From a virus (Duplodnaviria; Caudoviricetes), in the IMG/VR virus record IMGVR_UViG_3300014933_000403, positions 1 to 63,981 of that record: a stretch of 63,981 bases of DNA; one strand, 5' to 3'. The first letter of the stretch is position 1. Each line of letters opens with the position of its first letter. Below the pieces are notes generated by a model. The model was not told the DNA's origin. It saw nothing but the letters and a program-made list of their open reading frames with translations, and searched no databases. Positions 30,334 to 54,600 of this stretch are shown one piece after another. The position numbers and the translations under genes are program-made.

Positions 30334-30357
30334 ATACGCCCCTTTATTGGGGCGTAT
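30334..30357. terminator. Hairpin between the convergent MCP and HNH genes
   Basis: ATACGCCCC-tttatt-GGGGCGTAT followed by a T-rich tract. Confidence 0.55.
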
Positions 30358-30781
30358 CTGTTTTCTTCCATGTCTTCCCGTTTTTTACTCTATTGATTGC
30401 AGACTTGCACATGCCGAACTGAACCATCAGTTCTTTTGTTGACTTACCGCAAGTCCGTATGTATTCAGCAGACTCTTCCGTTAGCTTTGCAACAGTGCTA
30501 TTTCTTGTATTCTGTAAATGGGTGGCCCATCTAAAATTATCTGGGCCGTAGTTGCCGTCATTATCTACCCGATCTAGTTCTAATCCTTCCTTGTATCCTT
30601 CTATAACATCATCATAGAAATTTTTGAAATCGTCCAACCATCTTTGGCAAACGGTTATTCCGCGACCACCATATCTATGGTACCTGACTCTGGTAGTATT
30701 GTAGCACCGATCTTTCATGTCAGACCAAATTCCGTATAGTTTATGGCTTCTTAGTTTGTGCTGTTTTTTACGTTCTTTCAT
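30344..30781 (-). mobile_element. Free-standing HNH-type homing endonuclease
   Basis: LYGIWSDMKDRC...YGGRGITVCQRW...LDRVDNDGNY.PDNFRWAT...N, with a C-terminal HTH; start refined to MKERKK. Confidence 0.85.
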
Positions 30782-30969
30782 AAAATAAAAATACCCCAGA
30801 GGATGATTGGGGTAGAACCGAATTGAGACTTTCTCTCTCTTCGCCCAACCGCCCTCTGGGGCAGTTTCTGTGATAATTAATCTGGGTTCTACTTCAGACA
30901 TCACAAATCTAAAAACTTTTTCTCAAATCAACCCAACCAATTCATTAATTTTGGGAAGACACTACCATC

Positions 30970-33864: not shown

Positions 33865-36800
33865 ATGGGACCACAGACTCAATCTTTACGGCTACTAGGA
33901 ATGATGGATTACGACACCCCAAACGAGGTGTGGGTACCTGGCCGCCATAAGGTTGCGAGAAATATTATATTCAAGGGTGAGCCAGGCAACCTTCGAGGAG
34001 AAAAAATACCCGGGAATCGCAAGCTTAACTTTACTCCACCTGCAGGTAATAATGTGAACATCGGAAGATTTTGGGACCCCGTTCAGAAGAGGGTCTTTTT
34101 CTTTAACTATAATAGCAATGGTAATTCTGGAGTATACATCATCAATGATGACGAGAGTATTGTCACGCTGATACAAGACGGTACAAATACTACCGGTATC
34201 CCACTTTCTTTTACAGCAGACGGGGTAATTACTAGCGTAGATATTTTTTATGGCGATGATAACACTGGTGATATTTTATATTTCCTTGATAGCTTGAAAC
34301 GTCCGACTAAGATCAATATCAAAAGTTTCTTGGCTGGAACGTACAATCCTATTATCCGATCTTATATTGATGTAGCTAAAGCACCTCCACAGATGCCTAT
34401 CAAACCTGTGTATGAGAATGATGCTGATGTTACATCCAATCAATTGAGGAATATTTTATTCCAATTCAGCTACCGTTTTGTCTATGATGACAACGAGAAG
34501 TCTGTATGGAGTCAATATTCCATCGTGCCATTACCTTTTCAGCCGTATACCACACTTACGCAGGATGATTATCACTTAAACTCCAGGATCTCATTGTTTA
34601 TGAGCACTGGACCGTCTAACGTGAAAAAGATTGAGGTATCGTTCCGGTATGTGAAAGATGGAATTTTAAGCCCATGGTATCTGATATCAAGCTTTGATAA
34701 GGCAGCCTTGGGTCTTACTAGTAACGATGTATTCTGGTATAAGTTCTATAATAGCGACAATTACATACCTGTAGATCCTTTGGAGCAAAGAGAATTGCAG
34801 TCAATGGTTCCTCAGGAAGCTGCTGCTCAGTCCCTGATCAACGGGAATGTCTTAGCTTACACCAACATAAAAGAAGGCTACAACATTGTAAATGCCAATA
34901 CATCTGTTAACTCGCCTACTGAAAGTGGGAATACTTACTTCTTTGATTACAATGGATTACTGTTCTTTGCAACAATATCAGGTGTCGATAGCGGTGTAGC
35001 AGGCACAAGGATTAAAATTTACGTAGCAGGCACCGGTACGAATGTTAGTGGTACCGTAAGTGTATTCAATAATAGTGCAGCCTACTATAAAATAAATATG
35101 GTTGATGGGGCAGGTGCTGATAAAAGTATCAGCTACCTAGAGTCGGCATCGGTTCAAACAGTGAATGCCGTTCTTGCTGCTGTGTCTGGGTTGTTAGTAG
35201 CAGAAGGGTTTACTCAGGTATCTTTAGTGGATAATGTATTGATCGTAAGCTATCCAACAGCGATTACACTTTATTCTTCTGGAACTAGCACAACCGGTAC
35301 AGGGTTCGCATCACCTGTTAATGCCGCCACAACCAAATTTTCATACGCATTCCAATCTGCCTACACATTTGGTCAGATGTATTTTGACGAAGCGGGTAGG
35401 ACAAACGGTGCTGTAATAGCTGCAGGCGGTACATTCCAGACTGCTTTAGATAACGGGTCACAGAATATGTCACCTCAGTTAGTGATCAATCAACGTCCAC
35501 CTAAATGGGCTAGATCATGGGTGCCCGTAAGAACTCCGAACCTTACTTATTCCAAACGCCTGAACTGGGTGACCAATGGTGCTTACTCTGATGCTCAGGC
35601 TAATATTCTTGGGGTTAGATACGCTTATCTAGAGATTGATAATATCCGTCAGTATAATGAATTGATTCATGCTACCGAAGGGGTTGTTTCATACGGGTTC
35701 ACTCCTGGAGATCGTGTACGCATATCAGGTAGGTTTGCAGCTACCGGTGCTCCTGCTACATTGAATGCTACTTACGACTATGAAGTGTTGGGTGTTGTGA
35801 ATAGTTTCGTGGTAGATGGTATCACTAAGATTGGGACGTTTGTCCAAATATATTACCCTACTGCCGATATAGATGCCAACTTTAAGTTTGACGGCGCTGG
35901 TAATTTCCAGAACTACCAGATTCTTTTATATTCTTTGGCTAAACACCAAAATGCCACCAACCAGATATACTTTGAGTGTGGTAAGGCATTTGGTATAGGT
36001 AACCCAGGCACTGACCAGGCATATCATATTGGGTTGGAACAAACGCAGAGCGCTGATCTTGTCACACCGGCTAAGGTTACTCTTGCCAATGGAGATATGT
36101 TCGCTCGCCAGAGGGTCGTTTTTATAGGTCGTTCCGCAGTACTTAGTGCTGTTCCGATCGGGAATGGATTTTACTATGTGCGTCCTGAACTTACTATACC
36201 TACGACAATCACTAACGCAGTGTACACTCTGCAAGCTGCTACCGGTGCACAGGCAAACCCCCCACTGGTGCCTAGCTATGACCCTGCTGCTAATTTCTTC
36301 CTTAATAATTCAGTCAACCCTATAACTGTAAGGTTGAGGGCTAGCATTCCAATAACAGTTGACCTTGCTTTAAATGCATCTGTTCTGGCTACCATCAGTA
36401 CGCCTGGCCCTGTTGAGAAAGTGATCACACTTGTGAATCCGATCGCTATGAGTCCATCTGTTGGCTATACGGTAGAGGTTGATTCATATGTTACCGTTCC
36501 TCCAAGCGGTTATCTTAACATGCTTTTGGTAAACAGTGCCAATGTCGTGAACATGAACATAGGATCGTACAGTCTGACTGTTGATGTGATATTGAATGTT
36601 ACTATACCAATCATAGAAACCAGCTTCAGTGACGTATACAATATGATGATCAATAGCAATGGCCGTCCATCTGTATATGACCCTAACGCAAAGCAGGTTA
36701 CTGATGGTGTTTTGTTCCGGTACAGTCGACCGTATGATTTCGGAACAAATTTTAACGGGATGAGTATGTTTTACCCGCTCAACTATGATCGCTTTGATGA

Positions 36801-37830
36801 TTCATTTGGCCCTGTTATCCGTACCAGGATCAATCAAAATGAATTGAGGGTATTCCAGAAGGTTCGGGTTGGAAGAGTTGGTATATATGCTAGGTTCATC
36901 AAGAACAACGCAGGTGATACAACATTGATCACTTCTGATACTATCATCACGCCAAATAATATTGAGTACTATATTGGGGACTTCGGTTTATCGATACCTA
37001 GTTCTTTGGTTAGCAATGGCAATGTAGACTACTTCCCAGCAATTAATAAAGGAGTGTGGGTTAGGTTAAGCCAAGACGGTATGACACCTATCTCTGAGAT
37101 ATATCATATGCAGACATGGGCAGGGAATGTTTTACCTGCTTATAATACAGATACGGCTTACCAGTACGGTGGCATTGCTCGCATATGGGGTACGTTTAAT
37201 TACTTGAAAGATCGCCATGGGGAGGTTATATTCTCTCTTCAGGGTGGCGGCAGTAAAGTTCCGTACGCATTATCATTTGATGAAAAAGAGAATGCGTTTA
37301 GTTCTTTTTATGATTTCCAATCAGAAGCAATTCAGTCGGATAACATCGTTTGTGCCGGAAACAAGTTGATCACCTGGCAGGCAGGTATCCCGTATGTGCA
37401 TGATGATGTCGGAACAAACAGAAGATTCTATGGTTCTGGGTTCTTCCCATCCATTGATCTTGTGTTCAATGATAACCCAAATGTTAAAAAAGAATTCACT
37501 ACTGTCGGGTATGCTTCACCAATACAAAGCCAGGACTTATCTGAGCCTAGTGTGCCGCTGTGGGATGCACCGGTTATCGGTGATATATACACTGCATTGA
37601 ACCAACAAAGCAATTTGATATATGGTGACTTTGAGGCGAGGGAAAATATGTATTACGCAGCGTTCTGGAGAGCGGCCGTGTACAGCAATGTGTACAATGT
37701 TTATGATGTCTGGTCTGGAGATTACCTGAAAGGATTGTGGTTGCAAATGCACCTGAGATGTGGAACATATGGAGCAACTCATATCTTCTCACCGTTCGTC
37801 AATTACCTGGTATCACCAAAAGTCCTTTAA
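33865..37830 (+). CDS. Tail muzzle/stabilisation protein, crAss-like
   Basis: 1321 aa, beta-rich; GMMDYD...ARNI, P.KINI, FSYRFVYDDNEKS.WS, NVLAY.N.KEGY, RLSQDGMTPIS, LSFDE..NAFSSFYDF. Confidence 0.8.
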   Translation: MGPQTQSLRLLGMMDYDTPNEVWVPGRHKVARNIIFKGEPGNLRGEKIPGNRKLNFTPPAGNNVNIGRFWDPVQKRVFFFNYNSNGNSGVYIINDDESIVTLIQDGTNTTGIPLSFTADGVITSVDIFYGDDNTGDILYFLDSLKRPTKINIKSFLAGTYNPIIRSYIDVAKAPPQMPIKPVYENDADVTSNQLRNILFQFSYRFVYDDNEKSVWSQYSIVPLPFQPYTTLTQDDYHLNSRISLFMSTGPSNVKKIEVSFRYVKDGILSPWYLISSFDKAALGLTSNDVFWYKFYNSDNYIPVDPLEQRELQSMVPQEAAAQSLINGNVLAYTNIKEGYNIVNANTSVNSPTESGNTYFFDYNGLLFFATISGVDSGVAGTRIKIYVAGTGTNVSGTVSVFNNSAAYYKINMVDGAGADKSISYLESASVQTVNAVLAAVSGLLVAEGFTQVSLVDNVLIVSYPTAITLYSSGTSTTGTGFASPVNAATTKFSYAFQSAYTFGQMYFDEAGRTNGAVIAAGGTFQTALDNGSQNMSPQLVINQRPPKWARSWVPVRTPNLTYSKRLNWVTNGAYSDAQANILGVRYAYLEIDNIRQYNELIHATEGVVSYGFTPGDRVRISGRFAATGAPATLNATYDYEVLGVVNSFVVDGITKIGTFVQIYYPTADIDANFKFDGAGNFQNYQILLYSLAKHQNATNQIYFECGKAFGIGNPGTDQAYHIGLEQTQSADLVTPAKVTLANGDMFARQRVVFIGRSAVLSAVPIGNGFYYVRPELTIPTTITNAVYTLQAATGAQANPPLVPSYDPAANFFLNNSVNPITVRLRASIPITVDLALNASVLATISTPGPVEKVITLVNPIAMSPSVGYTVEVDSYVTVPPSGYLNMLLVNSANVVNMNIGSYSLTVDVILNVTIPIIETSFSDVYNMMINSNGRPSVYDPNAKQVTDGVLFRYSRPYDFGTNFNGMSMFYPLNYDRFDDSFGPVIRTRINQNELRVFQKVRVGRVGIYARFIKNNAGDTTLITSDTIITPNNIEYYIGDFGLSIPSSLVSNGNVDYFPAINKGVWVRLSQDGMTPISEIYHMQTWAGNVLPAYNTDTAYQYGGIARIWGTFNYLKDRHGEVIFSLQGGGSKVPYALSFDEKENAFSSFYDFQSEAIQSDNIVCAGNKLITWQAGIPYVHDDVGTNRRFYGSGFFPSIDLVFNDNPNVKKEFTTVGYASPIQSQDLSEPSVPLWDAPVIGDIYTALNQQSNLIYGDFEARENMYYAAFWRAAVYSNVYNVYDVWSGDYLKGLWLQMHLRCGTYGATHIFSPFVNYLVSPKVL

Positions 37831-40261: not shown

Positions 40262-43200
40262 ATGACCGATCCACAAACACAAATAGACGAGGTTACACTA
40301 GATAAACCTATCGCAGGTACTAAGTTTAAGCCTGTGGGCGATGTGCCTGAAGGTATGTTTGATAACAAAATGTCCGATCAGGACTTCGCAGAACTTTTAA
40401 AGAAGCAAAAACCAAAGACTGTTGGCGAGGCTGCCGTCATTGGCATGTCACAATACATGCTTGATCAGAAGAAAAACTACCAAGGAATTAAGAATAATGA
40501 GCAGGTTTCTAATAGGATGATTGCTCAGTCGGCCGACAAACTAAACAAAGTAAATACTCAACAGGTACCCATCGAAGATGATAAGGCAGCAAAGGATTTA
40601 GCTAAACGCCAGGCTGAATTCGAGAGAGACCTGTATGCAGATTATAGTATCCCAGAAGATCAGCGTCATGAAGGATCTATCGTTAAGATGCCAAAAGGCA
40701 TGCGTAGTGATTACGTTGATCACCTAGGCATGAAGAATCCTGCTTGGACTAGAGAATATGTTCAATTGCGTAAAGACCCAGATACCGGTAAATTATCCTG
40801 GCAGGGGTACAACAAGCCTTCTGTAATCAGAGGAGAGAGTGATATTACTATGTTCAGTACCAGGTTTAAGGACGAAGGATTTACTGAGCAGGTTGATGAT
40901 AAGACAGGGCTTAAAAGCAAAGTGCCCACCAAAGAAGTGCAGGCGTTTTGGGATAAGCAGGCTACCGATAAAGATTACAGTGAAGAAGCTACCAGAGCAA
41001 CGAATTTATTGCGTAACATGGAGGCATCAGGCAACTACCGTGTGAGTAAAATGATGGCATCCAACCCTGAGTTATGGAAGAACTTCAAGGCAGAGACAGG
41101 TTTTTTAACTGGGCAGGATCTAAATGAAGGTGGTGCTATGCAGGCTGCCGACAATGCTATCATGAAGACATTTGAGATGGATACGCCATTATCCAAGGTA
41201 GCACCTCATTATGCTCCATGGGCAATCATGGATGCTATTGATAAGCATAACCAGTTCGCAGAATACACCGATAAATATAATCAGGATCAGGATAATATAT
41301 CAGCAAAACTTCGGTTAGCAGGAGAGCCTTCGCTTTACCAAAAAATGCCGGAGGCTTTCGACAGGTTGCACGAGATCGAAGCACAGATGATGCGTGATCC
41401 TAAAAGTGTATCCCCGGCAGACCAGAAACAGTACAACGCCATCAAGCTTGAGCTGACCAAACACACTCTGGAAACCATGAAGGATTCTCCTCTGTCTGCT
41501 GCGTTTAAAATGAAGGCTGCTGAATACAAGGTGAAGAATGATCAGCATTTAAAAGATATTGAATTACTCGGCACACCCGATGGCCAGGCTGCACTCTCCC
41601 TGTTATCCAAACAGGCAAAAGGATATGAGATGTCGCAAAGGCTGCCAGATTACTTCCCGGGTATGAAACAGGCAGAAAAAGAGCAGAAAGCTATCGATGA
41701 GAAAGGGGATTACTTTTCTTCTATAAAAACATTCCTGAGAGGAGTGCGTAATTCTACCGAGTCAATCAGGTCAGGAATCATGCGTGATATCGGGTTTACT
41801 GAAGACCAGATTGGGAAAGAAATTTCTGGTGAAAAAAAGTCAGAACTTGATTTAAGAACTCCTATACGTGCAGGTAATACCGCATGGGAGAAGTTAGCAA
41901 ATTTCTCAGACGGCTTGGGTGAAATGGCTGGTGGGTTAGCCCCGGTGATGGCTATGACCATGGCTGTCGGAGGCGGTTCTATTAGCGGCACCATACCTTT
42001 TATTCTACGGGAAGGTGTCCCATTCTTTCTACAAGGGCAGAACGATTATTACCGTGAGGCTAGAGCCAACGGGTTGGATAATGTAACCGCCCACTTAAAA
42101 GGAATTCTTGGCGGTTCTGCGTTAGTACTCAGCCAAAGTATTCTTCCAAAAGGAAAACTACTTGACCATGGCGTTATCAATAAGGAAATTGAAGAGGTGA
42201 TCAAGAAGGGTGTGGTTGATAAATCAGCACTTGAAAGTTTTTATTCAAAGTTCATATCTTCTGGTATCCACGCAACTGGTGCCGGCGCTGCCATCACTAC
42301 CGCTAACGGCATGGCTGATTGGGCTATGAATAGCTACATCAATATGCAGAAAGGGACGAAGCTTCCTGCCGACCAGCTTGAGCCAGGCAAGATTTCTGAG
42401 TCTGCACTGATGTTTGGTGTGATGGGATCGATTATGAATGGGGTCTCCTCATTTGGAGACAAGTCTGCAGCACGATCTATGGTGCTAAAGATGGCAGAAG
42501 ATCATCCGCTTACCACTCTCCGGGCCATAGATGACGCAATTACCATTTCAAAAACAGATGCATCTTATAACGAGACCGCACTGCAGCGAATGAAAAAGGA
42601 TGTGTCTGAGGCTATACAGATGAGTTACCCGGAAAGCTTTACCAAGGAACAAAGAATAGCAACGTTCGACCTGATCAAGAAAAAAGAAGAACTACAACAG
42701 GAGCAATCAACGGTAGGCTCTGAATTTAAAGGATCATTTGAGCAGAAGATTAAGGCAATTGATGATAAAATAAAAGAGGTAGCCGACAAACCAGAATCGG
42801 CACAAAAACATTTGGATGAGGTATCCGACCCATTATATAAAAAACTTGAATCAGAAGGCTACTTTGATGTTCCATCTAAGAAGGAAGAGAAGAAAGCTGA
42901 AGACCAATCAAAAAAAGAAGCAGCTGTGGCCAAGTCGGAGTCGGCCCCTGTATTGATTCGCCATGGCGAAACTGATTCAAACAAGCTAGGCCTTACCGGT
43001 GCAGCTGATGATCCATTGAATGAGAAGGGCAAAGTGCAGGCTGAAAAGCTTGGCGAAGAATTGGCGGCAAGTGGGATTAAGAACGTTGTTACGTCACCAA
43101 TGACCCGGGCACAGGAAACAGCTGAAGCGATTGTTGGGAAGACAGGTGGCGAGGTGGTTACTAATGATAAGCTTGCCGAGTGGAATACTGGTGCAGATAA

Positions 43201-43654
43201 AACACCAATCTCTGAATTCGATACCAAATATTGGGTTAACCATCCAGATGAAGCACCTCCCGGTGGTGAAAGTTTTAACCAGTTCAAAGGAAGGGTGCAG
43301 TCGGCCAGAGATGAGATATCGGGTTTGAATAAAGAAACTGCTGTGGTTACCCACGGTAAGGTTCTTAAAATGATGGACGCTCTTGATCATAACAATGGGG
43401 AGTGGAATGAGAAAGCAAAGGCTGAGTTTTTGAAGGATAAAGATTTTGAGAATGCCACCCCGTACAAGGATGGGAAGAAATTCTCGCCAGAAAAAGTTGA
43501 GGTAGAGAAAACCATCGATGATAAGATTCAGGAGAAGCATGGCCGCACACCAGAAGAAATTATTAAACAAATGAAGGAAGAAGGTTCTCTTAAAATCAAA
43601 TGCCCTCCAGGATCAAAAAGAAAAATGCCACTCAGAGAAATCGTTAAATCATGA
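40262..43654 (+). CDS. Large ejection/polyvalent protein with a C-terminal histidine phosphatase domain
   Basis: G/A-rich hydrophobic central helices; IRHGET...SPMTRAQETA...LAEWNTG...GGES...VVTHG. Confidence 0.8.
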   Translation: MTDPQTQIDEVTLDKPIAGTKFKPVGDVPEGMFDNKMSDQDFAELLKKQKPKTVGEAAVIGMSQYMLDQKKNYQGIKNNEQVSNRMIAQSADKLNKVNTQQVPIEDDKAAKDLAKRQAEFERDLYADYSIPEDQRHEGSIVKMPKGMRSDYVDHLGMKNPAWTREYVQLRKDPDTGKLSWQGYNKPSVIRGESDITMFSTRFKDEGFTEQVDDKTGLKSKVPTKEVQAFWDKQATDKDYSEEATRATNLLRNMEASGNYRVSKMMASNPELWKNFKAETGFLTGQDLNEGGAMQAADNAIMKTFEMDTPLSKVAPHYAPWAIMDAIDKHNQFAEYTDKYNQDQDNISAKLRLAGEPSLYQKMPEAFDRLHEIEAQMMRDPKSVSPADQKQYNAIKLELTKHTLETMKDSPLSAAFKMKAAEYKVKNDQHLKDIELLGTPDGQAALSLLSKQAKGYEMSQRLPDYFPGMKQAEKEQKAIDEKGDYFSSIKTFLRGVRNSTESIRSGIMRDIGFTEDQIGKEISGEKKSELDLRTPIRAGNTAWEKLANFSDGLGEMAGGLAPVMAMTMAVGGGSISGTIPFILREGVPFFLQGQNDYYREARANGLDNVTAHLKGILGGSALVLSQSILPKGKLLDHGVINKEIEEVIKKGVVDKSALESFYSKFISSGIHATGAGAAITTANGMADWAMNSYINMQKGTKLPADQLEPGKISESALMFGVMGSIMNGVSSFGDKSAARSMVLKMAEDHPLTTLRAIDDAITISKTDASYNETALQRMKKDVSEAIQMSYPESFTKEQRIATFDLIKKKEELQQEQSTVGSEFKGSFEQKIKAIDDKIKEVADKPESAQKHLDEVSDPLYKKLESEGYFDVPSKKEEKKAEDQSKKEAAVAKSESAPVLIRHGETDSNKLGLTGAADDPLNEKGKVQAEKLGEELAASGIKNVVTSPMTRAQETAEAIVGKTGGEVVTNDKLAEWNTGADKTPISEFDTKYWVNHPDEAPPGGESFNQFKGRVQSARDEISGLNKETAVVTHGKVLKMMDALDHNNGEWNEKAKAEFLKDKDFENATPYKDGKKFSPEKVEVEKTIDDKIQEKHGRTPEEIIKQMKEEGSLKIKCPPGSKRKMPLREIVKS

Positions 43655-44040
43655 TAGAAATACACATCAAGTCAATACCTAAAAGCCAGCACAGATATGA
43701 AACATGTGGTGACTATTTTTATGATGCTGATGGTGTATTACAAATCAGAGTTACAGAGATGGGTAACTCATTCTACGAGACCGCAGTAGCAATCCACGAA
43801 ATGTTTGAAGAGGTATTAACAAAATTTCGTGGACTATCTGAACAAGAGATCATGGATTTCGATCTGTATTATGAGAAGAGAAGGGAATTGGGATTAGTCC
43901 CAGAAAACTCTGAACCAGGCTTTTCTAATGAGGCCCCGTATATGAAAGAGCATATTGCAGCACAAGCAGTTGAAATGCAGATGTTCGCTATGGCTGGTCT
44001 GTCTTGGGCTGATTATGAACAAAAAATAGACTCGTTATGA
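43651..44040 (+). CDS. Small putative metal-binding enzyme (HExxE)
   Basis: RYETCGDY, AVAIHEMFE, EPG, APYMKEH; ATGA-coupled to both neighbours. Confidence 0.55.
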   Translation: MIEIHIKSIPKSQHRYETCGDYFYDADGVLQIRVTEMGNSFYETAVAIHEMFEEVLTKFRGLSEQEIMDFDLYYEKRRELGLVPENSEPGFSNEAPYMKEHIAAQAVEMQMFAMAGLSWADYEQKIDSL

Positions 44041-45305
44041 AGTCAGTAAAAAATACAACGGTGTGCGTAGTGGATTATGGATACTTTTTCCCCATTGCGG
44101 AGAGGCTAGCCAGGGACTGCGATAAAGTATACGTTACTACTATGTGGCAGGATTCAATGCCCAAATGGAATAAGTATGCCATCGGAATGGGGATGGATAA
44201 TGTTGAACGTGTGGATAGCATTTGGGATGTGATTGACGAGTGTGATTGGTTTGTGTTCCCCGATCTGTATCAGGCAGGGCTGCAGGAATATCTGGTATCC
44301 ATAGGTAAGGTTGTATTCGGTGCTCGTTATGGTGAGGATATGGAAATTTACCGAGATGATCTCAAAGAACTGATGGAGAAAGTAGGATTACCAGTAAACG
44401 ATTACAACGTTATCGAAGGGTTCTCAGCACTTAAAAAATACCTTAAAAACAAAGAAGACCTGTATATAAAGACCAACCTTATCCGTGGGTCTGGAGAAAC
44501 ATTCCATTATATCAGCCATAGGCTATCTGAAAGCCGCCTTGACCGCATGCAGGAGATCCTTGGAGCGTTTAAGGAAGAAGCTGTGTTTGTGGTGGAGAAA
44601 CCAATACCTGATGCCGTTGAGGTAGGATATGATGGATTTTCTATAGAAGGACAGTTCCCTGAGATCGCGATGTGCGGTATTGAGGTGAAAGATTGCGGAT
44701 ATGTTGGCGGTCTGGTACCGTATGAATCGTTGCCGGAATGCGTTACCGAGGTGAATGAAAAACTATCCAAGGCGTTTAAAAAAACCAATTACCGGTGTTT
44801 CTTCTCTTCTGAGATCAGATGGGATAAGAAGACAGGATACCTTATTGATTCCACCAACCGTGCTCCAAATCCTCCCGGGTTTCTGATGTGTGAGATCATA
44901 GATAATTTCTCTCAGGTTTTGTGGGAGATCGCTAATGGGGAAGTACCGGTTATTAAGCCTGCTGCCAAGTTTGGTGCTCAGGTGATCATTAAATCCTCAA
45001 TGGCGGCACATTCCCCACAGGCTGTGTATTTCCCTTCCAAGGTGAAAGATCGGGTTAAAATCCAGTGCCCAATGATCAAGGATGGCGTTTTGTATTACAT
45101 ACCGCTTACTGAAGATCATGAAGAGGTGGGTATTGGAAGTGTGATCGGGCTTGGTGATACCATGGAAGAAGCTATCGAAGATGCGAAAAGGATAGCCGAG
45201 ATGGTGGAAGGTGACAGTATTTCCATAAATTGCGATGACTTGGTGAAGGCTAAAGGCCAAATCGAGAAAGCTGCTGAATACGGAATAGAACTCTTTAAAA
45301 AATAA
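44037..45305 (+). CDS. PurD-like ATP-grasp ligase
   Basis: VFG...MEIYR..LKELM...GLP, YIK....RGSGETF, VVEKPI, YLIDSTNR.P.P; 422 aa. Confidence 0.75.
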   Translation: MKSVKNTTVCVVDYGYFFPIAERLARDCDKVYVTTMWQDSMPKWNKYAIGMGMDNVERVDSIWDVIDECDWFVFPDLYQAGLQEYLVSIGKVVFGARYGEDMEIYRDDLKELMEKVGLPVNDYNVIEGFSALKKYLKNKEDLYIKTNLIRGSGETFHYISHRLSESRLDRMQEILGAFKEEAVFVVEKPIPDAVEVGYDGFSIEGQFPEIAMCGIEVKDCGYVGGLVPYESLPECVTEVNEKLSKAFKKTNYRCFFSSEIRWDKKTGYLIDSTNRAPNPPGFLMCEIIDNFSQVLWEIANGEVPVIKPAAKFGAQVIIKSSMAAHSPQAVYFPSKVKDRVKIQCPMIKDGVLYYIPLTEDHEEVGIGSVIGLGDTMEEAIEDAKRIAEMVEGDSISINCDDLVKAKGQIEKAAEYGIELFKK

Positions 45306-45308
45306 CCA

Positions 45309-48300
45309 ATGCCATCATACTCTCCAGACTGCATATTCACTCTTACGCTACCGGATGGATCAAAAAAAGAATTCAAAGGGGAAGAAGCGTTTAAGCAGCA
45401 TTTGGCTGAGAATGATTTAAAACCCCCTAAACCAATAGAAGAAGGTAGTGGTAGTGTAGGGGATGCAAAAGGAGTAACCCCATCTGATTTTTCAAAACAA
45501 ATGGAAGAAAAGCATGGTATTACTTTGGACTTAATGGGTGATTTGAATAAAAAAGGTGCATTAGGTGATTTAACGCTATCGAGAATAGAAGTGCCAAAAG
45601 ATAAACAAGGAAGTGGTATCGGTAGTAAAGCAATGGAAGATATTGTAAAGTATGCAGACGAAAATGGTAAGCGTATTGTATTAACACCATCAACCGATTT
45701 TGGTGCAACCTCCGTTAATAGACTTAAAGACTTTTATAAACAATTCGGGTTCGTTGAAAATAAGGGAAGTAATAAAGACTTTACTACCAAAGAAACAATG
45801 TACCGAGAACCAATTAAAAATGAAACAACCCCAACAGAAGTAAAACAATCACCAAAGCAATTAGCCGATCGTATCCGCAGCCTAAAAAGCGATAAAGGAA
45901 CATTGAACGTATTACCAGACCTAGGTCTTACCAAAGCTATTTATGATGGAGCACTTGAATTCTTAGCTAGCCAGGTAGAAAAAAATACAGAATTCGGTAA
46001 AGCTATTGAAGCTACCGTTAACTGGGTAAATGAAAATATGTCCGGAAAGAAGTGGGGCGAAGCGATGTTTAGAAAGCATATGGAAGATCAGGATCAATCA
46101 TTATCCAAGCCTGCAAAATTTGATATAGCCAAAGAAGATGCGAAACACGTTGCTGAGTTAAAAAAGGACGATGTAGAAAATAAAGTCATCTCTGGTAAAA
46201 CAGTTTCCACCAGAGTCCCAACATCTGCCGGCACTGATCAGTCTGCGGTACATAAAACAGGTGACAACGTAGCTAATCTGAAAGAAGCACGTAAATCTCC
46301 TAGTAATTACATGACCATCGCCCAGACGATTGCCAGCTACGACCTTATGAGAAGATTTACTGATCCTAAAGATGTAAAAGCGATAGAGAAGGGTCTCCTT
46401 CCAAAATCAAAAGGTGGTAGCCCAGAACTGCAGGCAAAAGGAATGGAAGCTGCCGATCGTGTGTATAAGGATTTTGTGCGTAAAGTAGCAGATAACCTAT
46501 TGTGGCTGCACGATAGCGTTCCGGATGATGTTCGCAAGGTTTCCGAGAGGTGGTATGACGGGGCTAATGTATTGGCTCAGAATCTTGCCAAAAAATATAA
46601 GATGTCAAATGAACAGGCATCAGCAGTACTAGCATCTTTAAGCCCACAGATGGATTGGTATAAAAATATCAGTCTAGCTGAACGTGTTATTGATATTGTT
46701 AAAACAAAATCAGATTTCATTATTGATCAAAAGATCATTGATAAATACGTAGAACTTTCTGGCAGAGGTCAGGTAATGAAAGGTGAATCAAAAGAAGCAT
46801 TCGATGCCAGGATGCAGAAACAAACAGAAGATGCAAAGAAGAGTGCAGCCGGGTTACTTGGCAAAAAACTATCCGAAGACCGCGACTATTTCCCTCAAAT
46901 GTTACGATCTTATGATGAGGCATACAATTCAAAATCATACAACGTATACTCTCCAAATGGTGACATTATAGGCGTTGCAAAAAACAAACCAGATAAAAAA
47001 GGAGTTGCTGCCTATTCAAAGGTGGGGTGGCAAGGGTATAGTACTATTGATAAAGCAATATCGTTAGCACAGGACGGCTCCCCTGAAAATATATCAAAAC
47101 AGTTGGGAGAAGAACATAAGGTTCGAAGCTTTAATAACAACATCTCTGATCCTAATTCAAAAACACCGCATGTTACTATTGACACACATGCAGTAGCTGC
47201 TGCATTTCTGGAGCCATTGGCAGGCAGTGATCAAAAAGTGAAGGATAACTTATCCGGCAAAGGATCTGCTGAAACGGGTATATCCGGTACGTATGCTGCA
47301 TTATCTGAGGCTTACGATATGGCTGCAAAAGAAAGAGGAATACTTGCTCGCCAGATGCAGTCGATAACCTGGGAAGCTGTAAGGGGGTTATTTAAAGACA
47401 CGTTTAAAAGTGATGCAAAAAACAAAGAAGCTGTATCTCAAATATGGAAAGATTACGCTAACCATAAAATAAATATCCATGAAGCAAGACAACGGGTTAA
47501 TGATGCTGCCGGAGGAATTGAGACCCCAAGCTGGTCAAGATCAAGTAATAAAAATGCTGTTGAGGGAAAAGACTCCAATAAATCAGGAGACGTATCTGAA
47601 CCAGGCTCTGTGGGGAGCGACCGAGGAACCGGACGAGGAAATGATAAACTCGGTAAAGCCGAAGTGGTTCGACCAGCTGCCAAAAAATTAGCAGACCAGG
47701 TTCGTGAACTTAAATCCAAGAAAGGTAAGCTGTATGACGCAGGCTTAGGTGTTCCTGTCGCTATCTGGGATGGTGCAATAGAAACTATCGCCACAGCTAT
47801 TGAACTCGGAGAATCGATCGTAGATGCCGTTAAACAAGGAGTGCAGCATATTAAGGATAATCATACTGGTGACCCGGTAACAGATAAAGATATCGTTGCT
47901 GCTCTGCATAAAGAGTTGGTTGATTCTGGTCATCTTGATGATCAGCAGAAAAAAGAACTTACCCAGTACAGAGTTGCAACTGCTATCGGTAACCTAGACA
48001 AGGGCAAATCTGTATGGCAGAAAATAAAAGATTTCGTATCCAAGCCGAAAGATATGATCAAAGCCGGTGTTAAAATGTTCCATGCGGCATCGTTTGAAGG
48101 AAGAGAAATGGCTAGAGATACCATGGCTGCTATCAGGGGTATTAAAGGAGAAGAGAACAGAAAGAATGAGCAGGCAGATGCAGAGCACCATAAATTAATG
48201 AATGATTGGAATAGCATCCCTCATCAAGATAAAGTAAACTTCATCCTTAGCATTGAGAACCCGAAGATGTATGGAGATGCTACTCCTGAATATAAAGCCA

Positions 48301-50486
48301 TGGCTGATATGTACCGCCAGCGTATGGATGATGTATTCGATATTTTAAGCAAGATCAAGGATGTTCCATACACCGAAGATTACTTCCCTCACTTCTGGGA
48401 GAAACCAGATAAAGCAGGTGCTCACTTTGCAGCAGTGCATGCGAAAGCACCATTAGAGGGTAATAAATCATTCTTGAAGCAGAGGTTCTTTGCTGATATC
48501 CTTTCCGGATTAGAAGCTGGTTATAAGTTGGCAACTGACAACCCAGAAGAAATGGTACGTTTGGCTGAGACCAACGCCTGGAAGTTCGAGGCTGCTCATA
48601 AGGTGTTTAAGGAAATGAAGAGGGACGGCCTGTTGAAATTTTTCAAGACCGGTGGTCAGCCGGAAGGATGGCAGTTGGTGGAAGATCCTTTGTTTAAACG
48701 TATGAGCAGCTTTGTTACGGAAGAAGGCACCGCTAAATCAAGTTCTGGTGGGTACTATATGCCAGAGCCTGTAGCTTATGTGGTTAATAACTACCTGAGT
48801 CGTGGATTCGCAGGTAAAGGCGTGATCATGAAGAATGCCTTCCAATCAGCAAGAGCATACAACAACGTTAAGAACTTGTTCCAGTTAGGGTTTGGGATGT
48901 TCCACTTAACTACCACAACCATGGATGCTACCGTAACCGGTGCCGCTGAGGGGGTTAGGTTACTTACTGCAGGCAAGCCAAGCGGATTTGGACAGTTACT
49001 GAGTTCGTTGGCTGTTCTTCCTAACATAGGCAAAACTCTGTATGTTGGCGATAAAGGCATCAAATCGTACAGGCAAAAGGGGATAATGGATGAATCTGTG
49101 CGTGGGATGATCGATGCGAACGCAAGAACCGGTTTAAGCAAAATATACACTCTTGATTCATATTACAACCTGAAGAAAGGGATTGGTAAACTCAGAGCAG
49201 ATAAAGATTTTTCACAACTGCCGGGAGTCGTTAAGAACCTTGTGCTCACCATCCCTGAGATTGCCGCCAAACCATTGATGGAATGGTATGTTCCCCGTCT
49301 TAAAGTGGGAGGTATGATCCGTACCGCAGAGAACGAAATTATCATGAAAGGTGGTCGCGGTGAACTTTCTCCAAAAGAGATTGCCAGAATATACCAGAAA
49401 GCCGGTGATTCCATGGACGATCGTTTAGGACAGATGGTTTATGATAACCTGTTCTGGGATAAAACTATGAAGGACATGGCATTTCTTACCATCCGTTCGT
49501 TCGGTTGGACAGGCGGTACTATCCGGGCCTTCGGTAAAGGAACACTAGAAGCCCCTGAGTCAGCTAAACGATTACTGAAAGGGCAAGGACTTACTTCAAA
49601 CACAGCCTGGTTACTTACCCTACCTGCCATGGTAGGAACTTACGGGGCAATGTACCAATACATAATGACTGGGAAGAAGCCAGAAGAATGGCGTGATTAC
49701 TTCTTTCCTAAGGACGGTACAAAGAATGCTGACGGAACTGATCACAGGGTTTCTCTTCCCTCCTACATGAAAGATGCATTCTCATATGCCAAAGATCCTG
49801 GTAAGACATTGGCTGATAAAACATCACCAATTATCAACGAAGTGATCAGCCTGTTTGAGAATAAAGATTTTTATGGCACTGAGATATACTCTGGGAATTT
49901 GATTGAAAAAGGAGTTGATATTTTAAAATACGAGGGGGAATCATTTATTCCATTCTCCTTCAAACCACAGAGTTCTTCCGAAAAGGAGCCATCACTCAGA
50001 CAGAAGGTTGAACAGAAGTTCGGTATTATGCCGGCTAAAAAGGAATTCCAACAAACCCCAATACAAAATAAAATATCCGTGGCGGCACAGAAATCATTTA
50101 AGGATGAGGTTAAAACAAAAGCTGATGCCGAACGTATATCTGCTCGTAGAGAACTCAGGAATGACTTATTTGCCGGAACAAAGTGGAATGACATACCTAA
50201 GGAGGTTAGAGATAAAGCCAGGCTTACGAGCAATGGGCAGCAGGCATACATCAGGGATGCCAAGCTGAACCCTTACCATAGAATCTTCCGCGATCTTCCT
50301 TCCGAGCAACAGCTGAAGGTGTGGACAGAGATGAAGCCTGAGGATAAAAAAGAATATAAACAATACATCAACAGGGTATCATCGTTCATAAACCTGGCTA
50401 GGACAAAGCCGGAGTTCTTTGATACCCCAGAACTCAAGGATGCTTATAAGGAAATCACTCATCATGACCTTCCTAAGGAGAAATAA
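45309..50486 (+). CDS. Giant polyvalent ejection protein with GNAT, DNA-glycosylase-like and LPD38-like domains
   Basis: VPKDKQGSGIGS...LKDFYKQFGF; LSPQMDW..N, VTIDTHA, MQSITW; C-terminal SP...ENKDFYG.EIY. Confidence 0.75.
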   Translation: MPSYSPDCIFTLTLPDGSKKEFKGEEAFKQHLAENDLKPPKPIEEGSGSVGDAKGVTPSDFSKQMEEKHGITLDLMGDLNKKGALGDLTLSRIEVPKDKQGSGIGSKAMEDIVKYADENGKRIVLTPSTDFGATSVNRLKDFYKQFGFVENKGSNKDFTTKETMYREPIKNETTPTEVKQSPKQLADRIRSLKSDKGTLNVLPDLGLTKAIYDGALEFLASQVEKNTEFGKAIEATVNWVNENMSGKKWGEAMFRKHMEDQDQSLSKPAKFDIAKEDAKHVAELKKDDVENKVISGKTVSTRVPTSAGTDQSAVHKTGDNVANLKEARKSPSNYMTIAQTIASYDLMRRFTDPKDVKAIEKGLLPKSKGGSPELQAKGMEAADRVYKDFVRKVADNLLWLHDSVPDDVRKVSERWYDGANVLAQNLAKKYKMSNEQASAVLASLSPQMDWYKNISLAERVIDIVKTKSDFIIDQKIIDKYVELSGRGQVMKGESKEAFDARMQKQTEDAKKSAAGLLGKKLSEDRDYFPQMLRSYDEAYNSKSYNVYSPNGDIIGVAKNKPDKKGVAAYSKVGWQGYSTIDKAISLAQDGSPENISKQLGEEHKVRSFNNNISDPNSKTPHVTIDTHAVAAAFLEPLAGSDQKVKDNLSGKGSAETGISGTYAALSEAYDMAAKERGILARQMQSITWEAVRGLFKDTFKSDAKNKEAVSQIWKDYANHKINIHEARQRVNDAAGGIETPSWSRSSNKNAVEGKDSNKSGDVSEPGSVGSDRGTGRGNDKLGKAEVVRPAAKKLADQVRELKSKKGKLYDAGLGVPVAIWDGAIETIATAIELGESIVDAVKQGVQHIKDNHTGDPVTDKDIVAALHKELVDSGHLDDQQKKELTQYRVATAIGNLDKGKSVWQKIKDFVSKPKDMIKAGVKMFHAASFEGREMARDTMAAIRGIKGEENRKNEQADAEHHKLMNDWNSIPHQDKVNFILSIENPKMYGDATPEYKAMADMYRQRMDDVFDILSKIKDVPYTEDYFPHFWEKPDKAGAHFAAVHAKAPLEGNKSFLKQRFFADILSGLEAGYKLATDNPEEMVRLAETNAWKFEAAHKVFKEMKRDGLLKFFKTGGQPEGWQLVEDPLFKRMSSFVTEEGTAKSSSGGYYMPEPVAYVVNNYLSRGFAGKGVIMKNAFQSARAYNNVKNLFQLGFGMFHLTTTTMDATVTGAAEGVRLLTAGKPSGFGQLLSSLAVLPNIGKTLYVGDKGIKSYRQKGIMDESVRGMIDANARTGLSKIYTLDSYYNLKKGIGKLRADKDFSQLPGVVKNLVLTIPEIAAKPLMEWYVPRLKVGGMIRTAENEIIMKGGRGELSPKEIARIYQKAGDSMDDRLGQMVYDNLFWDKTMKDMAFLTIRSFGWTGGTIRAFGKGTLEAPESAKRLLKGQGLTSNTAWLLTLPAMVGTYGAMYQYIMTGKKPEEWRDYFFPKDGTKNADGTDHRVSLPSYMKDAFSYAKDPGKTLADKTSPIINEVISLFENKDFYGTEIYSGNLIEKGVDILKYEGESFIPFSFKPQSSSEKEPSLRQKVEQKFGIMPAKKEFQQTPIQNKISVAAQKSFKDEVKTKADAERISARRELRNDLFAGTKWNDIPKEVRDKARLTSNGQQAYIRDAKLNPYHRIFRDLPSEQQLKVWTEMKPEDKKEYKQYINRVSSFINLARTKPEFFDTPELKDAYKEITHHDLPKEK

Positions 50487-51039: not shown

Positions 51040-51635
51040 TACCATCAACTACCATAACTCTGTCGGGCGAACTAGCCAAGATCAGCGGAGGTTTATCCGG
51101 TGCCGATAATAAGGTGAAGGCTATGCTTTCTGATGGCCCGGGTGAGGCTGATATTCGCACTGTGTTCCTGCTTAATTTTTACTCAGACATGATTGACTTT
51201 GCTGCTGCTGTTCTTCCAGGATCTGCAGCACTTAGCCAGATTGCGTTATATGCATATTCTCTTTGTGGCGAATATATCCCGAGAGCAGTTGAGATTGTAA
51301 GTGGCCAGACAGGCGTTATTGTGGTGAACCCCGGTACGAACGTATCGTCCTTTGTCAACTATCAAAGCGATTTCGTTGTTGGGGATGTCGGTGCTCCTAT
51401 AGCCGCAGGAGACACATCGTTCACCATTAACATTGGTAAGAACAGGGTATGGAGTAACCAGAGTGTTACCGTTAGCCGAGATCAGGCTATTCTTCCTCAG
51501 GATAAGCCTGGGTACGTAAGCTATAGTGCCATATACGATACCGTATCTGGTTTAGTCACCATTACATTCACCGAGGCTGTGCAAAATTCACAACTTTACA
51601 TCATAGCATTTAATTACCTAGTCATTTTATCATGA
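51036..51635 (+). CDS. Putative tail hub or fibre adaptor
   Basis: Helical N-terminus and Ig-like beta C-terminus; ATGA-coupled to the fibre gene. Confidence 0.5.
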   Translation: MIPSTTITLSGELAKISGGLSGADNKVKAMLSDGPGEADIRTVFLLNFYSDMIDFAAAVLPGSAALSQIALYAYSLCGEYIPRAVEIVSGQTGVIVVNPGTNVSSFVNYQSDFVVGDVGAPIAAGDTSFTINIGKNRVWSNQSVTVSRDQAILPQDKPGYVSYSAIYDTVSGLVTITFTEAVQNSQLYIIAFNYLVILS

Positions 51636-54600
51636 AAAAGTTTTTACTGATCCTTACGTGCATCTGCATTTCCTTTTTGGCAAAATCTCAGGTGCCGGCA
51701 GGAGCGGCATCTCCTAAATCACCGTCTGGCTTTGCTGAGTATGGGTACCTACTTACCGATAGTGCTGGAATCGCTGCTAAAAGAGATACATCTTGGAGTC
51801 CAAAGTATACAGGATCTTGGGTTTACTGGCAGAATCCAGGCGTTGACTCTGCCTTCTGGGTATTTAACGGGAAGGCTACCGGGAAGAGATGGGATAAGGT
51901 TGTGATCGTAAGCGGAAGTTATTCCCCAGGCACAGGTACGGTTACAGCTGTTATAGCAGGAACTGGCATGAACTTCTCAACCATAACATCGTCTGGTCAG
52001 GTAAAAGCTGATACGCTTGTATTATCAACAAGACTTCATGTTGATAGCGTTGCTATGCGTAAGGTTAATTACACAGACACGGCAGCAATGCTAAGTGGTT
52101 ATGCAAAGACAGGTAATGTACCTGCACAATTTAATTTATCAGTAAATGCACCAATAGTTAAGTCAGGTACTTACCCTAATATTACTGTATCAGCAGATAC
52201 AGGTAGGGCAGTAGCAGAATTAGTTACGGGTGGTTCTTTAAATAAAGTAAGGGATAGTTTGCAAGCCAATATAACCGCAGCGACAAGCGGAGTAAGTTCA
52301 TTTGGATTTACTAATGCAAACGGTATTTCAGGTATAGTAACTAACCCAACATCAACCCCAAATCTTACATTAAGTTTAGGGGCTATTACACCAACATCAG
52401 TATCAGCAAGCGGTGGAATATCATCTGCTACTTTATATTCAAGTGGGACTATATTAGCAGGTAATACTATGGCTTTAGGTGGTGCTACTATTATTCCAAC
52501 TACTGGGTTAAATATGAATAGTGTTAGTGGTACATTAGGTAGAGGTGTAGATGTGCAAATATCAGGCACAAGTTCAGACGCTAATTATGCTTATATAGGG
52601 GCATCAGTTGGTGCTGCAACAGGGGTAAATTATGGTGCTTATTTACGTGCAGAAAATTCTTCTGCAAATAACTATGCTTTATGGACTGAAACGGGTAATG
52701 TTTATTTCGGTTCATTACCTTTTGGGTCGGCAGGAACAGACTCCTTATTGGTAACAAGTGGTGGTGTAGTGAAAAAGATAGCTGCTTCTTCTTATCCTTT
52801 ATCATCATCAGTAGTTAAATATACTGATACTTCATCAATGTTATTACCTTATTTAAGGAAAAGTGATACTGCATTTATGATGAGTAATCACTTGCTTATT
52901 TCAGATACAGCTAATATGCTTGCAAGGGGATGGTTGGCTAACCGTTCAAAAGATAGTATATCTGTTTTAAGAGCATTAATAAATACTAAGGGTGCAGGTA
53001 CAGTAACATCCGTAGGGCTTTCTTTACCATCCTTTATAACAGTATCAAGTTCTCCTATTACAAGTTCAGGAACAATAGTAGGTACACTTGCAACCCAAAC
53101 CGCTAATAGAGTATTTGCATCAGCTACAAGCGGTTCACCTGAACAGCCTACTTTTAGGTCATTGGTAGCAGCAGATTTACCCGACCTTTCGGGTTCTTAT
53201 ATAGTAAATGGTAATTCTCAACAAACAGCAGACTTCAACATTAGCGGCAACGGTGTAATAGGTGGTAAACTTGCTTTTGCTTCAGCTTCTTTATCAGATG
53301 CAACTTTAATAAACGCAAGCGGTGGAAGTACGGGATATTCAAGGGGATTTGATTTGAATATAAACCCAACTACTTCTGAAAATAGAGGTATATCATTAGG
53401 GGTGGGAGGTACTACTACGGGAACAAATTATGGTATTTATTCTTCGGTATATGGCGGTAGATATAATTATTCTTTCTATTCATACAGAGGAAACCAAAGA
53501 TTTACAGATACTACGTTCATGCCCGATAGTGGCAGAATATATATCGGTTCATCGGGTTATTATTCAACCAATACAGCCGTTCAGGTTTCAAGGTTACTAA
53601 ACGTATCAAATTTTCCGTCAAATTCGGCACACGCATTTAGTGATGCATCGCAATTTGATGTACCAAATGCGCCTTACGCAAGCTATGACGCTGCATTGAG
53701 ATTTTACTATCATGGCGGTTCGGGTTCGCCTCACGAACACTATAACGGGTTTCAGTTTGCCCCGTCAACACTTGGTACACCTGTTTATATAGGAAGATTA
53801 ACAGGTTTATATTCGGGAACGCATAATATGACTGATGCCGTAATTACTAATTTCTTCGCTACTGTTTATGAGGACACAACACACTTCGCATCCGTTCCTA
53901 CTGATAGAAACTTTCTGTTATATAGTACAAATCCGAATGGGGGAAGAATACAGACACTTGGTGCATTGGATATATCTGGTAAATCTTATTTGAGAAATAT
54001 GTCAAATGGCAGTAGTTCAGATAGTGTTGTTACTGTGGTTAATGGAGAATTAAAAAAGATTGCACAAACATTTGGAAGTGGTACTGTAACAAGTGTTGCA
54101 GCAGGAATAGGAATGAGTTTTACTACTATTACGGGAAGTGGTTCTGTTAATGCAGATACAACTGTATTATCTACAAAAGCAAATGTTACAGCATCTTTAT
54201 TGCCTAAATTAAATCTATCCGATACGGCTTCGATGCTAAGTAACAGACTTAAAATAAGCGACACACTAACAATGCTATCTCCTTATTTAAACGATGCTTA
54301 CAATGGTCTAACCAAATCAAGTAAAAAGGTAAAATTAGGAGGGTTGCTTACTGAAAACACAACCATAACGGATAGCACATTCTCAATGTTATTTACTAAC
54401 ACCAAAAAAATAAACAATTCAAGCAAATTTGGGCAGAATGGTGAATTGAATTTATGGGGGGTAACAGCAGATGATAATACCCAACTTTTGTATGCAGGTA
54501 ACTACGGTTCACTATCGGTTAATTCAGCAGCTACATACAACCCATATTACAACGGTATTTACACAGCTAACGCAGGTATTACTTACTATAATAACGCAGG

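Follow-up and report, generated by a model that had tools for sequence, protein, structure and literature searches.

Why would a tailed phage keep, amid the genes for its particle, a ligase built like the purine enzyme PurD and, overlapping it, a gene for a small protein with a metal-motif signature? The question is raised by a viral contig of 63,981 bp (Duplodnaviria, Caudoviricetes; IMG/VR record IMGVR_UViG_3300014933_000403, positions 1 to 63,981), called the window here in its whole length, whose completeness is estimated at 89%. Two of its open reading frames (ORFs) are at issue: P0001 (43651..44040, + strand), a 129-amino-acid (aa) HExxE protein and candidate metal-dependent enzyme, known from its ORF translation, and P0002 (44037..45305, + strand), a 422-aa PurD-type ATP-grasp ligase, recognized from its ORF translation, a profile and a structural model. 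A preliminary description of this DNA had noted two ORFs coupled through ATGA, and these are borne out at 43651-44040 and 44037-45305. Both are taken to be real genes because their homologous families are large and their adjacency recurs widely. The two probably work as a single enzyme module and are not a purine gene taken from a host, and the explanation preferred here, tentatively and with slightly less than even confidence, is that P0001 and P0002 form a conserved enzymatic cassette of the late (virion-module) operons of tailed phages, directed at a protein or peptide.

The ligase and its substrate sites

Searches of Pfam, PHROGs and PADLOC with P0002 returned no relevant match, with no GARS match at E <= 1, and a PDB search with the single sequence returned nothing meaningful. 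Homologues number 156 in 5.8 billion proteins (the 120 listed have E <= 3.2e-72), and a profile built from 56 sequences matches glycinamide ribonucleotide (GAR) synthetases in the PDB (2yw2, E 4.9e-8; 1vkz, E 9e-6). As modeled by AlphaFold (predicted local distance difference test, pLDDT, 95.4), the protein has the full four-domain PurD-type fold in N-B-A-C order; GAR synthetases fill the top 14 of the Foldseek rows listed (E 6.5e-19 to 1.1e-14, template-modeling (TM) scores 0.65-0.74), and behind them come biotin carboxylases, PurK, PurT and an L-amino-acid ligase. In the ESM Atlas, P0002 falls into a cluster of 1438 members, 96% of them viral, in agreement with a PurD-like placement. Aligned by hhalign with Escherichia coli PurD it is collinear (residues 8-391 against 2-409), at a probability of just 45.9%.

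The residues E103, R106, K145, E195, E216, K218, E259, D271 and R275 are invariant in the 56 ligase sequences. With PurD numbered as in the 423-residue protein of PMC8880213, E103 aligns with E100, R106 with K103, K145 with K143, E216-x-K218 with D212-x-K214 and R275 with R287, a mapping by sequence alignment only, in which hhalign sets the catalytic Arg one position off HMMER and MAFFT. The available part of the same paper assigns E100, K103, K143 and K214 to ATP/Mg, and D212 and R287 to the glycine carboxylate (PMC8880213). The Asn of the PurD E-F-N motif is replaced by Thr in P0002.

The substrate sites tell a different story, both in the clade of P0002 and in a second, sister clade of viral ligases. 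The G-G-R-E-H of PurD is aligned to D-Y-G-Y-F-F-P in P0002, and the GGREH positions are hydrophobic, non-basic and non-acidic in 21 of 21 aligned phage ligases, sister clade included; in human PurD, R13 and E14 are proposed contacts of the phosphate and ribose of phosphoribosylamine, according to the accessible portion of PMC2978367. After the retained R275, P0002 reads A-P-N-P-P, and PurD E292 pairs with P280. In place of GDPE stands P-x-P-P, or Y-D-x-x where the ligase belongs to the sister clade, and the same 21 sequences all lack the RxGDPE acidic residues; R287 and E292 of this motif bind glycine, as stated in the sections available of PMC8880213. A 9-residue PurD loop is also deleted in the P0002 clade. 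The sister clade, which likewise adjoins HExxE genes, is more PurD-like, and five of its nine tested sequences reach the Pfam cut-off of GARS_A. Judged from these alignments, P0002 is a PurD-derived ligase with its aligned ATP-grasp core intact and its substrate sites rebuilt.

A purine role, with P0002 as a diverged GAR synthetase that still functions and raises purine synthesis in the host, is highly improbable. The full-length, collinear PurD fold would suit such a role, as would the sister-clade matches to GARS_A and the few homologues annotated at source as 'phosphoribosylamine-glycine ligase' or 'phosphoribosylaminoimidazole carboxylase'. It is opposed by the absence of GGREH and of the RxGDPE acidic residues throughout the aligned phage sequences, and by the scores against the purD equivalog of NCBIfam (TIGR00877), where P0002 reaches 18.9 bits and the sister-clade ligase of L126 reaches 77.8, against a cut-off of 288. 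The gene also lies within a late virion operon, away from nucleotide-metabolism genes, in a window that holds no other pur gene: no purine-biosynthesis family was found among the 50 ORFs scanned with PHROGs or the 21 scanned with Pfam, and a six-frame search of the window with GARS_A gave 0 matches at E <= 0.01. Compared with PurD (EC 6.3.4.13), then, P0002 shares the four-domain fold and the ATP, Mg and catalytic Arg positions, but it has 12-16% identity, lacks GGREH, the RxGDPE acidic residues and the 9-residue loop, falls far under the Pfam and NCBIfam cut-offs, and sits in a virion module without a pur operon.

The preliminary description had called P0002 a PurD-like ATP-grasp protein, had found no further purine genes in the window and had argued against a purine auxiliary gene. 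The family placement is invisible to Pfam and PHROGs but backed by the profile matches to the PDB, the Foldseek result for the model and the ESM Atlas; the empty PHROG, Pfam and six-frame searches agree with the second statement, and motif loss, the low purD score and the lack of other pur genes agree with the third. The comparison of substrate-site residues that it had proposed came out negative for PurD.

Seven ligase homologues carry inserts of 350-429 aa, two of them at surveyed loci (L015:9992-12319; L061:9998-12337) and five in longer database proteins (P0300-P0304), although the letters flanking the insert are identical in L015 and P0300, which may be one sequence. All seven inserts lie between T273 and C274-R275, within the invariant D-x-T-x-R motif; each opens with Cys, and Cys stands again directly after it. 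A LAGLIDADG domain scores above its cut-off in the L061 intein, and the intein-splicing Pfam matches are below theirs. Inteins usually sit in conserved active-site motifs of genes that a phage cannot lose, and their position here may be read as a mark of selection on the ligase active site. A search for longer ligase forms gave only the five intein-bearing proteins and no other fusion.

A 516-aa viral cluster of the ESM Atlas (93 members) is structurally near-identical to P0002 but about 90 residues longer, and T4_Y16D (PF26092), which we took to correspond to T4 NrdC.4, is assigned to 48% of its members. Compared with the ligase profile, T4 NrdC.4 gave a probability of 0.5%, that is, no relation, and this lead was dropped.

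A protein family with an HExxE motif

P0001 carries H49-E50-M-F-E53 and E100-H101, as expected of the 129-aa HExxE...EH protein that had been described. No family model of Pfam, PHROGs, NCBIfam or PADLOC matches it, and a profile of its family gave 0 matches to PDB sequences. When 1.84 billion cluster representatives were searched with the family profile, 1825 relatives came up at E <= 1e-3 and 1568 at E <= 1e-10. Among 179 aligned members, G20, E50, E53 and G90 are conserved in 179, H49, H101 and E108 in 178, D71 in 177, Y97 in 176, Y16 in 175 and E88 in 173; HExxE is present in 179 of 179, and no HExxH variant was found among them. P0001 and its relatives make up a new metal-motif protein family.

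In the structural model (pLDDT 96.2), three beta-strands (4-9, 20-24 and 30-35) are followed by four helices, with H49, E50 and E53 on the helix spanning 40-60 and H101 and E108 on that spanning 98-115. An exhaustive structural alignment places mostly small zincin-like enzymes on top: selecase (Z 5.0, root-mean-square deviation 2.9 over 78 residues), then CapP and PprI (Z 4.8), followed by YbeY, abylysin, jannalysin and SPRTN; these minimal enzymes span Z 5.0-4.0, below the reliability range of the tool, for which Z under about 8 may mean merely a common arrangement. The named neighbors of P0001 in the ESM Atlas are SprT-like and M78 clusters, at TM 0.47-0.52. With minigluzincins (selecase, jannalysin), ImmA/IrrE-M78 proteins (CapP, PprI), SprT/SPRTN and YbeY, P0001 shares small size and, in its model, a three-stranded sheet followed by an H-E-x-x-[ligand] helix; it differs from them in having HExxE and never HExxH, in the additional conserved residues D71, E88, H101 and E108, and in lacking any PDB or Pfam sequence match. 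We read P0001 as a candidate metal-dependent enzyme on a zincin-like scaffold, with a hydrolase as the simplest guess. The more definite peptidase, or 'eraser', of the preliminary description is not sustained by fold matches as weak as these (Z <= 5.0) or by a motif that is HExxE throughout.

An N-terminal HNH nuclease match occurs in 14 of 24 longer members of the HExxE family (P0152, P0164, P0166, P0178-P0180, P0184, P0186, P0197, P0217, P0245, P0258, P0287 and P0295), one of which also has NUMOD3. Such forms could represent homing endonuclease genes that have either fused with the adjacent gene or been run together with it in gene calling.

Linkage, partners and genomic surroundings

The adjacency of ligase and HExxE gene is recurrent but not obligate. 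A survey seeded with the ligase covered 58 distinct viral loci, of which 37 have an HExxE gene, directly adjacent in 33 (13 upstream, 20 downstream) and farther off in 4. For the 21 remaining loci, a whole-record search located an HExxE gene elsewhere in one, and an iterated hidden Markov model (HMM) search for diverged HExxE genes gave no new match. In the reverse direction, the best 80 of 317 HExxE relatives were surveyed: a PurD-like ligase lies within 6 kb in 51 of the 80, and in 41 of the 54 loci with at least 3 kb on both flanks, 34 times adjacent. The gene-neighborhood survey proposed in the preliminary description thus finds the pair co-occurring widely from either seed (33/58 adjacent; 41/54). 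A 4-nt overlap is the most frequent junction of the two genes, seen 27 times. A ligase tree was built from both surveys, the window and two Aquificae virus loci, with dereplication at 90% identity and exclusion of 11 of 111 ORFs whose length fell outside 380-480 aa. Of its 74 rows, 49 have the HExxE gene adjacent and 8 farther off, 5 have an AdoMetDC-like (S-adenosylmethionine decarboxylase-like) gene upstream, 2 an M28-like gene upstream and 10 no partner; along this tree the position of the partner flipped between upstream and downstream at least seven times.

In one clade of the ligase tree (Shimodaira-Hasegawa-like approximate likelihood ratio test, SH-aLRT, 99), the HExxE domain is followed by a C-terminal Erv1/ALR thiol-oxidase domain. 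This fusion was found at 13 loci (L017:11262-11966, L020:11262-11972, L030:5399-6115, L031:11266-11967 and 9 further loci), representing 9 distinct sequences, and in the four fusion proteins tested the Erv1/ALR Pfam scores are 28.4-37.9 bits (4/4; cut-off 27.6). The fusion shows a C-P-C motif where the Erv1/ALR family has CxxC. No Erv1/ALR domain was found in the window. The fusion gives a hint of a protein-directed theme.

Such a fusion is unusual for a phage. Small ORFs lie 5' of the ligase in the same clade, directly or one or two ORFs off (L025:9729-10004, L031:9735-10004, L017:9586-9852, L040:9822-10004, L058:9386-9565 and L030:3497-3721); some are very basic, with 88-91 aa and two Cys, and others are acidic, with 59-74 aa and a terminal Glu (…TEE, …STE, …NDE). 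It is conceivable that these ORFs encode substrates of the ligase.

Another clade, without the HExxE gene, has an AdoMetDC-like gene, of pyruvoyl-enzyme type, 5' of the ligase; this arrangement occurs in 8 of the 58 loci (L007:9580-9999, L011:9553-10008, L016:8052-8534, L024:273-743, L029:9189-9584, L034:3542-3910, L036:7102-7470 and L038:3600-3965). The clade has an SH-aLRT of 99, and 5 of its 7 rows carry the gene upstream. The AdoMet_dc Pfam scores are 36.3 bits in L007 and 19.3 bits in L011 (cut-off 25), and 7 AdoMetDC-like sequences all retain the E-S pair at which such enzymes cleave themselves. A possible M28-like metallohydrolase of about 190 aa, with the pattern H-x-D, D-N, E-E and W-H, is encoded directly 5' of the ligase in L004 (9411-10004), L049 (9436-9999) and L061 (9424-9996). 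Its label received no support from a PDB profile search and is kept as a lead only. L004 is the closest relative of the window with the same flanking genes, and there the M28-like gene fills the slot of P0001, another slight hint at protein-directed chemistry.

In the window, the late region is a long run of genes on one strand, and the pair belongs to an end-to-end chain of four genes encoding 1130, 129, 422 and 1725 aa. The junctions of the 1130-aa gene with P0001 and of P0001 with P0002 are 4-nt ATGA overlaps, and a 3-nt gap separates the stop of P0002 from the start of the downstream gene at 45309. The upstream neighbor (40262..43654, + strand; phrog_12933) has a histidine-phosphatase domain at aa 897-1038 (Pfam His_Phos_1, 116.1 bits, cut-off 21.7), and homologues occupy the equivalent position in L004, L005 and L015; it is a possible substrate or co-packaged protein. 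The downstream neighbor (45309..50486, + strand; phrog_10691, phrog_3842), the largest ORF of the window, has DUF7178 near its N-terminus (Pfam, 95.6 bits, cut-off 27), as well as GNAT-like matches there that stay below their cut-offs (Acetyltransf_CG 21.3 against 30 bits, Acetyltransf_7 20.5 against 27), and homologues lie 3' of the ligase in L004 and L015. The pair had been placed between the two largest cargo genes, which does not hold: its flanks are the fourth-largest and the largest ORFs of the window, with proteins of 1321 and 1320 aa falling between them in size. The window has no excess of promoter-like sites (35 against 43.5 expected), its 19 terminator-like sites against 14.3 expected were counted as no excess, and the G+C content runs without a break at P0001/P0002, so the two genes are considered native to the late operon.

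Portal, large terminase and 'virion structural protein' PHROGs are among the genes around the pair in the window. The 1321-aa protein (33865-37830) has a weak match to the C-terminal domain of the crAss muzzle (Pfam, 21.3 bits, cut-off 27), and the 1320-aa protein (51632-55594) is likely a tail fiber or spike because a Pfam S74 chaperone-of-endosialidase domain lies at its C-terminus. An HNH endonuclease gene (30344-30904, - strand; several PHROG HNH families, best E 1.1e-38) lies amid structural genes that otherwise share one strand. At other loci, the neighbors of the pair are large terminase, major head protein, virion structural protein, tail fiber and head decoration protein genes, and in the two Aquificae virus genomes the ligase stands between portal and terminase, flanked by small ORFs that are not HExxE relatives. 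An ORF of at least 1000 aa lies within 3 genes of the ligase in 26 of the 58 loci and not in the other 32. The association with giant virion-type genes that had been suggested therefore stands for those 26 loci; elsewhere, the ligase sits beside terminase, head, tail or portal genes, which points to morphogenesis generally and is not specific to ejection.

By its terminase, the window is closest among cultured phages to those of Flavobacterium and Cellulophaga (27% identity). A tblastn search of cultured phages gave no match for P0001 or P0150 and matched P0186 through its HNH part alone; a 10-kb megablast gave no match. By tblastn, neither gene was found in a cultured phage, and the ligase was found just in the two uncultivated Aquificae virus genomes. 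A term search of the paper on the Aquificae viruses found no mention of the ligase gene (PMC7689252). A ligase pattern searched in bacterial and archaeal genomes gave nothing, which for so narrow a pattern is weak evidence of absence, and an equally narrow HExxE pattern gave one match in species-representative genomes, L143, a 72,509-bp contig in a Bacteroidetes metagenome-assembled genome. The phage-sized L143, binned with that genome, is a weak hint of the host that agrees with the terminase relatives. No paper describing the pair turned up in the literature searched; a 2009 survey of ATP-grasp amidoligases, outside that search, might mention the ligase family.

Possible targets of the pair

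For the cassette preferred here, we infer catalytic activity, a hydrolase role, a protein target and joint action of the two proteins. P0002 would be an active carboxylate-amine ligase evolved from PurD, making an acyl-phosphate from ATP and Mg and passing the acyl group to an amine, with donor and acceptor pockets so rebuilt that it would no longer join glycine to phosphoribosylamine. P0001 would be a small metal-binding enzyme whose zincin-like scaffold bears two His and several carboxylates, all of them invariant, and would most likely act on the ligase's own substrate, perhaps by hydrolyzing an amide or otherwise processing it. The target we prefer would be some protein or peptide that is synthesized or packaged while the virion is assembled, and to it the ligase may add a tail or a side-chain amide that the metalloenzyme trims or prepares. 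In RimK, in tubulin tyrosine ligase (TTL) with MATCAP and in LysX with LysK, a protein-tailing ATP-grasp amide ligase is paired with a metallohydrolase on the same amide. The pairing of ligase and metalloenzyme is the likeness to P0001/P0002, and MATCAP turns up as a weak fold match to P0001 (Z 3.5); the difference is that P0002 is structurally nearest PurD and that no carrier or acceptor protein was found for the pair. It is rather unlikely that many uncultured tailed phages have a dedicated ATP-dependent modification system for virion or ejected proteins, in which the ligase would write an amide, be it an extra residue, a tail or a cross-link, on a packaged or structural protein, and the HExxE metalloenzyme, which one clade has fused to a thiol oxidase, would prepare or remove it.

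Several results weigh against a protein-directed cassette. Six ligase records that are at least 90% complete have no HExxE gene, so the ligase does not need it. Both surveys contain near-identical loci, and the HExxE survey, seeded with the ligase's partner, is not independent. Distances between ligases and distances between their partners do not correlate across the 49 adjacent pairs (Mantel r 0.051; 480 of 2000 permutations reached this value or more), so co-divergence was not seen; with distances near saturation, the test is weak. The zincin-like assignment of P0001 is itself weak (best Z 5.0), Foldseek with its model found nothing at E <= 1e-3 in the PDB or BFVD, and its conserved polar residues, two His and five carboxylates with E standing where HExxH has its other His, could equally belong to a two-metal or redox center. 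The M28 score of the alternative partner is below threshold (18.3 bits, cut-off 21.3) and was obtained in one of three sequences. Neither a substrate nor an acceptor motif was found; PurD itself and the enzymes closest to it in structure (PurT, PurK, biotin carboxylase) act on small molecules, and the AdoMetDC-like partner in one clade points to small-molecule amine chemistry.

Synthesis of a small molecule, in which the ligase would amidate a free amine or amino acid to a polyamine-type or dipeptide-like compound that P0001 would hydrolyze or tailor, is unlikely yet remains a serious rival because of that partner and of the PurD ancestry; we think it similarly unlikely that the compound would serve DNA condensation or packaging, or act as an effector. 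The nearest folds, the well-supported clade with an AdoMetDC-like gene in place of HExxE and the near-complete genomes with the ligase alone all suit such chemistry. The AdoMetDC-like proteins, however, are far under the NCBIfam equivalog cut-off (19.9 against 75.65 bits) with a marginal PDB match (E 0.045), they lie near the ligase in just 8 of 58 loci, and the surroundings of the pair showed no further gene of an amine pathway; a protein target agrees better with the constant position amid virion genes and with the partner's fusion to Erv1/ALR. Phages also have two-gene sets around an amide ligase of another kind, the PF12224 amidoligase, whose fold is glutamine-synthetase-like; fold, partner and setting all differ from those of P0001/P0002, as P0002 lies in a virion module. 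Pairs of PF12224 amidoligase and glutamine amidotransferase are widespread and counted among auxiliary metabolic genes in the available text of PMC10580990.

Also unlikely, but kept open by the giant neighbors, is a role as injected effectors, in which both proteins would be packaged, ejected with those neighbors and act early on the host, as solo counterparts of the domains of 'polyvalent' proteins. In the window the pair is coupled between the histidine-phosphatase protein and the DUF7178 protein with its sub-threshold GNAT matches, and ORFs of at least 1000 aa, near the ligase in 26 of 58 loci, make up 42 of 1023 called genes. Zincin-like peptidases are the commonest domain of polyvalent proteins, are proposed to process packaged proteins and have solo versions among late genes, according to the part of PMC5512222 available. 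P0001 resembles these domains in its late, virion setting beside giant multi-enzyme proteins and differs in being a stand-alone gene with another metal motif. Neither domain was seen fused into a giant protein, since HMM scans of all ORFs of the loci gave stand-alone genes only, and many loci have no giant neighbor; in that same portion of PMC5512222, ATP-grasp is mentioned for RNA ligases only.

Both families are large and nearly purely viral, and sequence libraries leave them unnamed or mislabel them as purine or biotin-carboxylase enzymes. Automatic pipelines would score both genes as auxiliary metabolic genes, a (purine) label that the substrate-site evidence makes wrong. That the function matters to the phages is suggested by an adjacency that recurs in changing order, by inteins lodged in the ligase's catalytic motif and by a location that stays within the virion genes. 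A modification system of the kind described above would, if true, be an enzymatic step in particle maturation without description in the literature searched. If the target is a virion protein, the pair would represent an ATP-dependent modification step in phage assembly; if the product is an amide of a free amine, it would be a phage-made compound tied to packaging.

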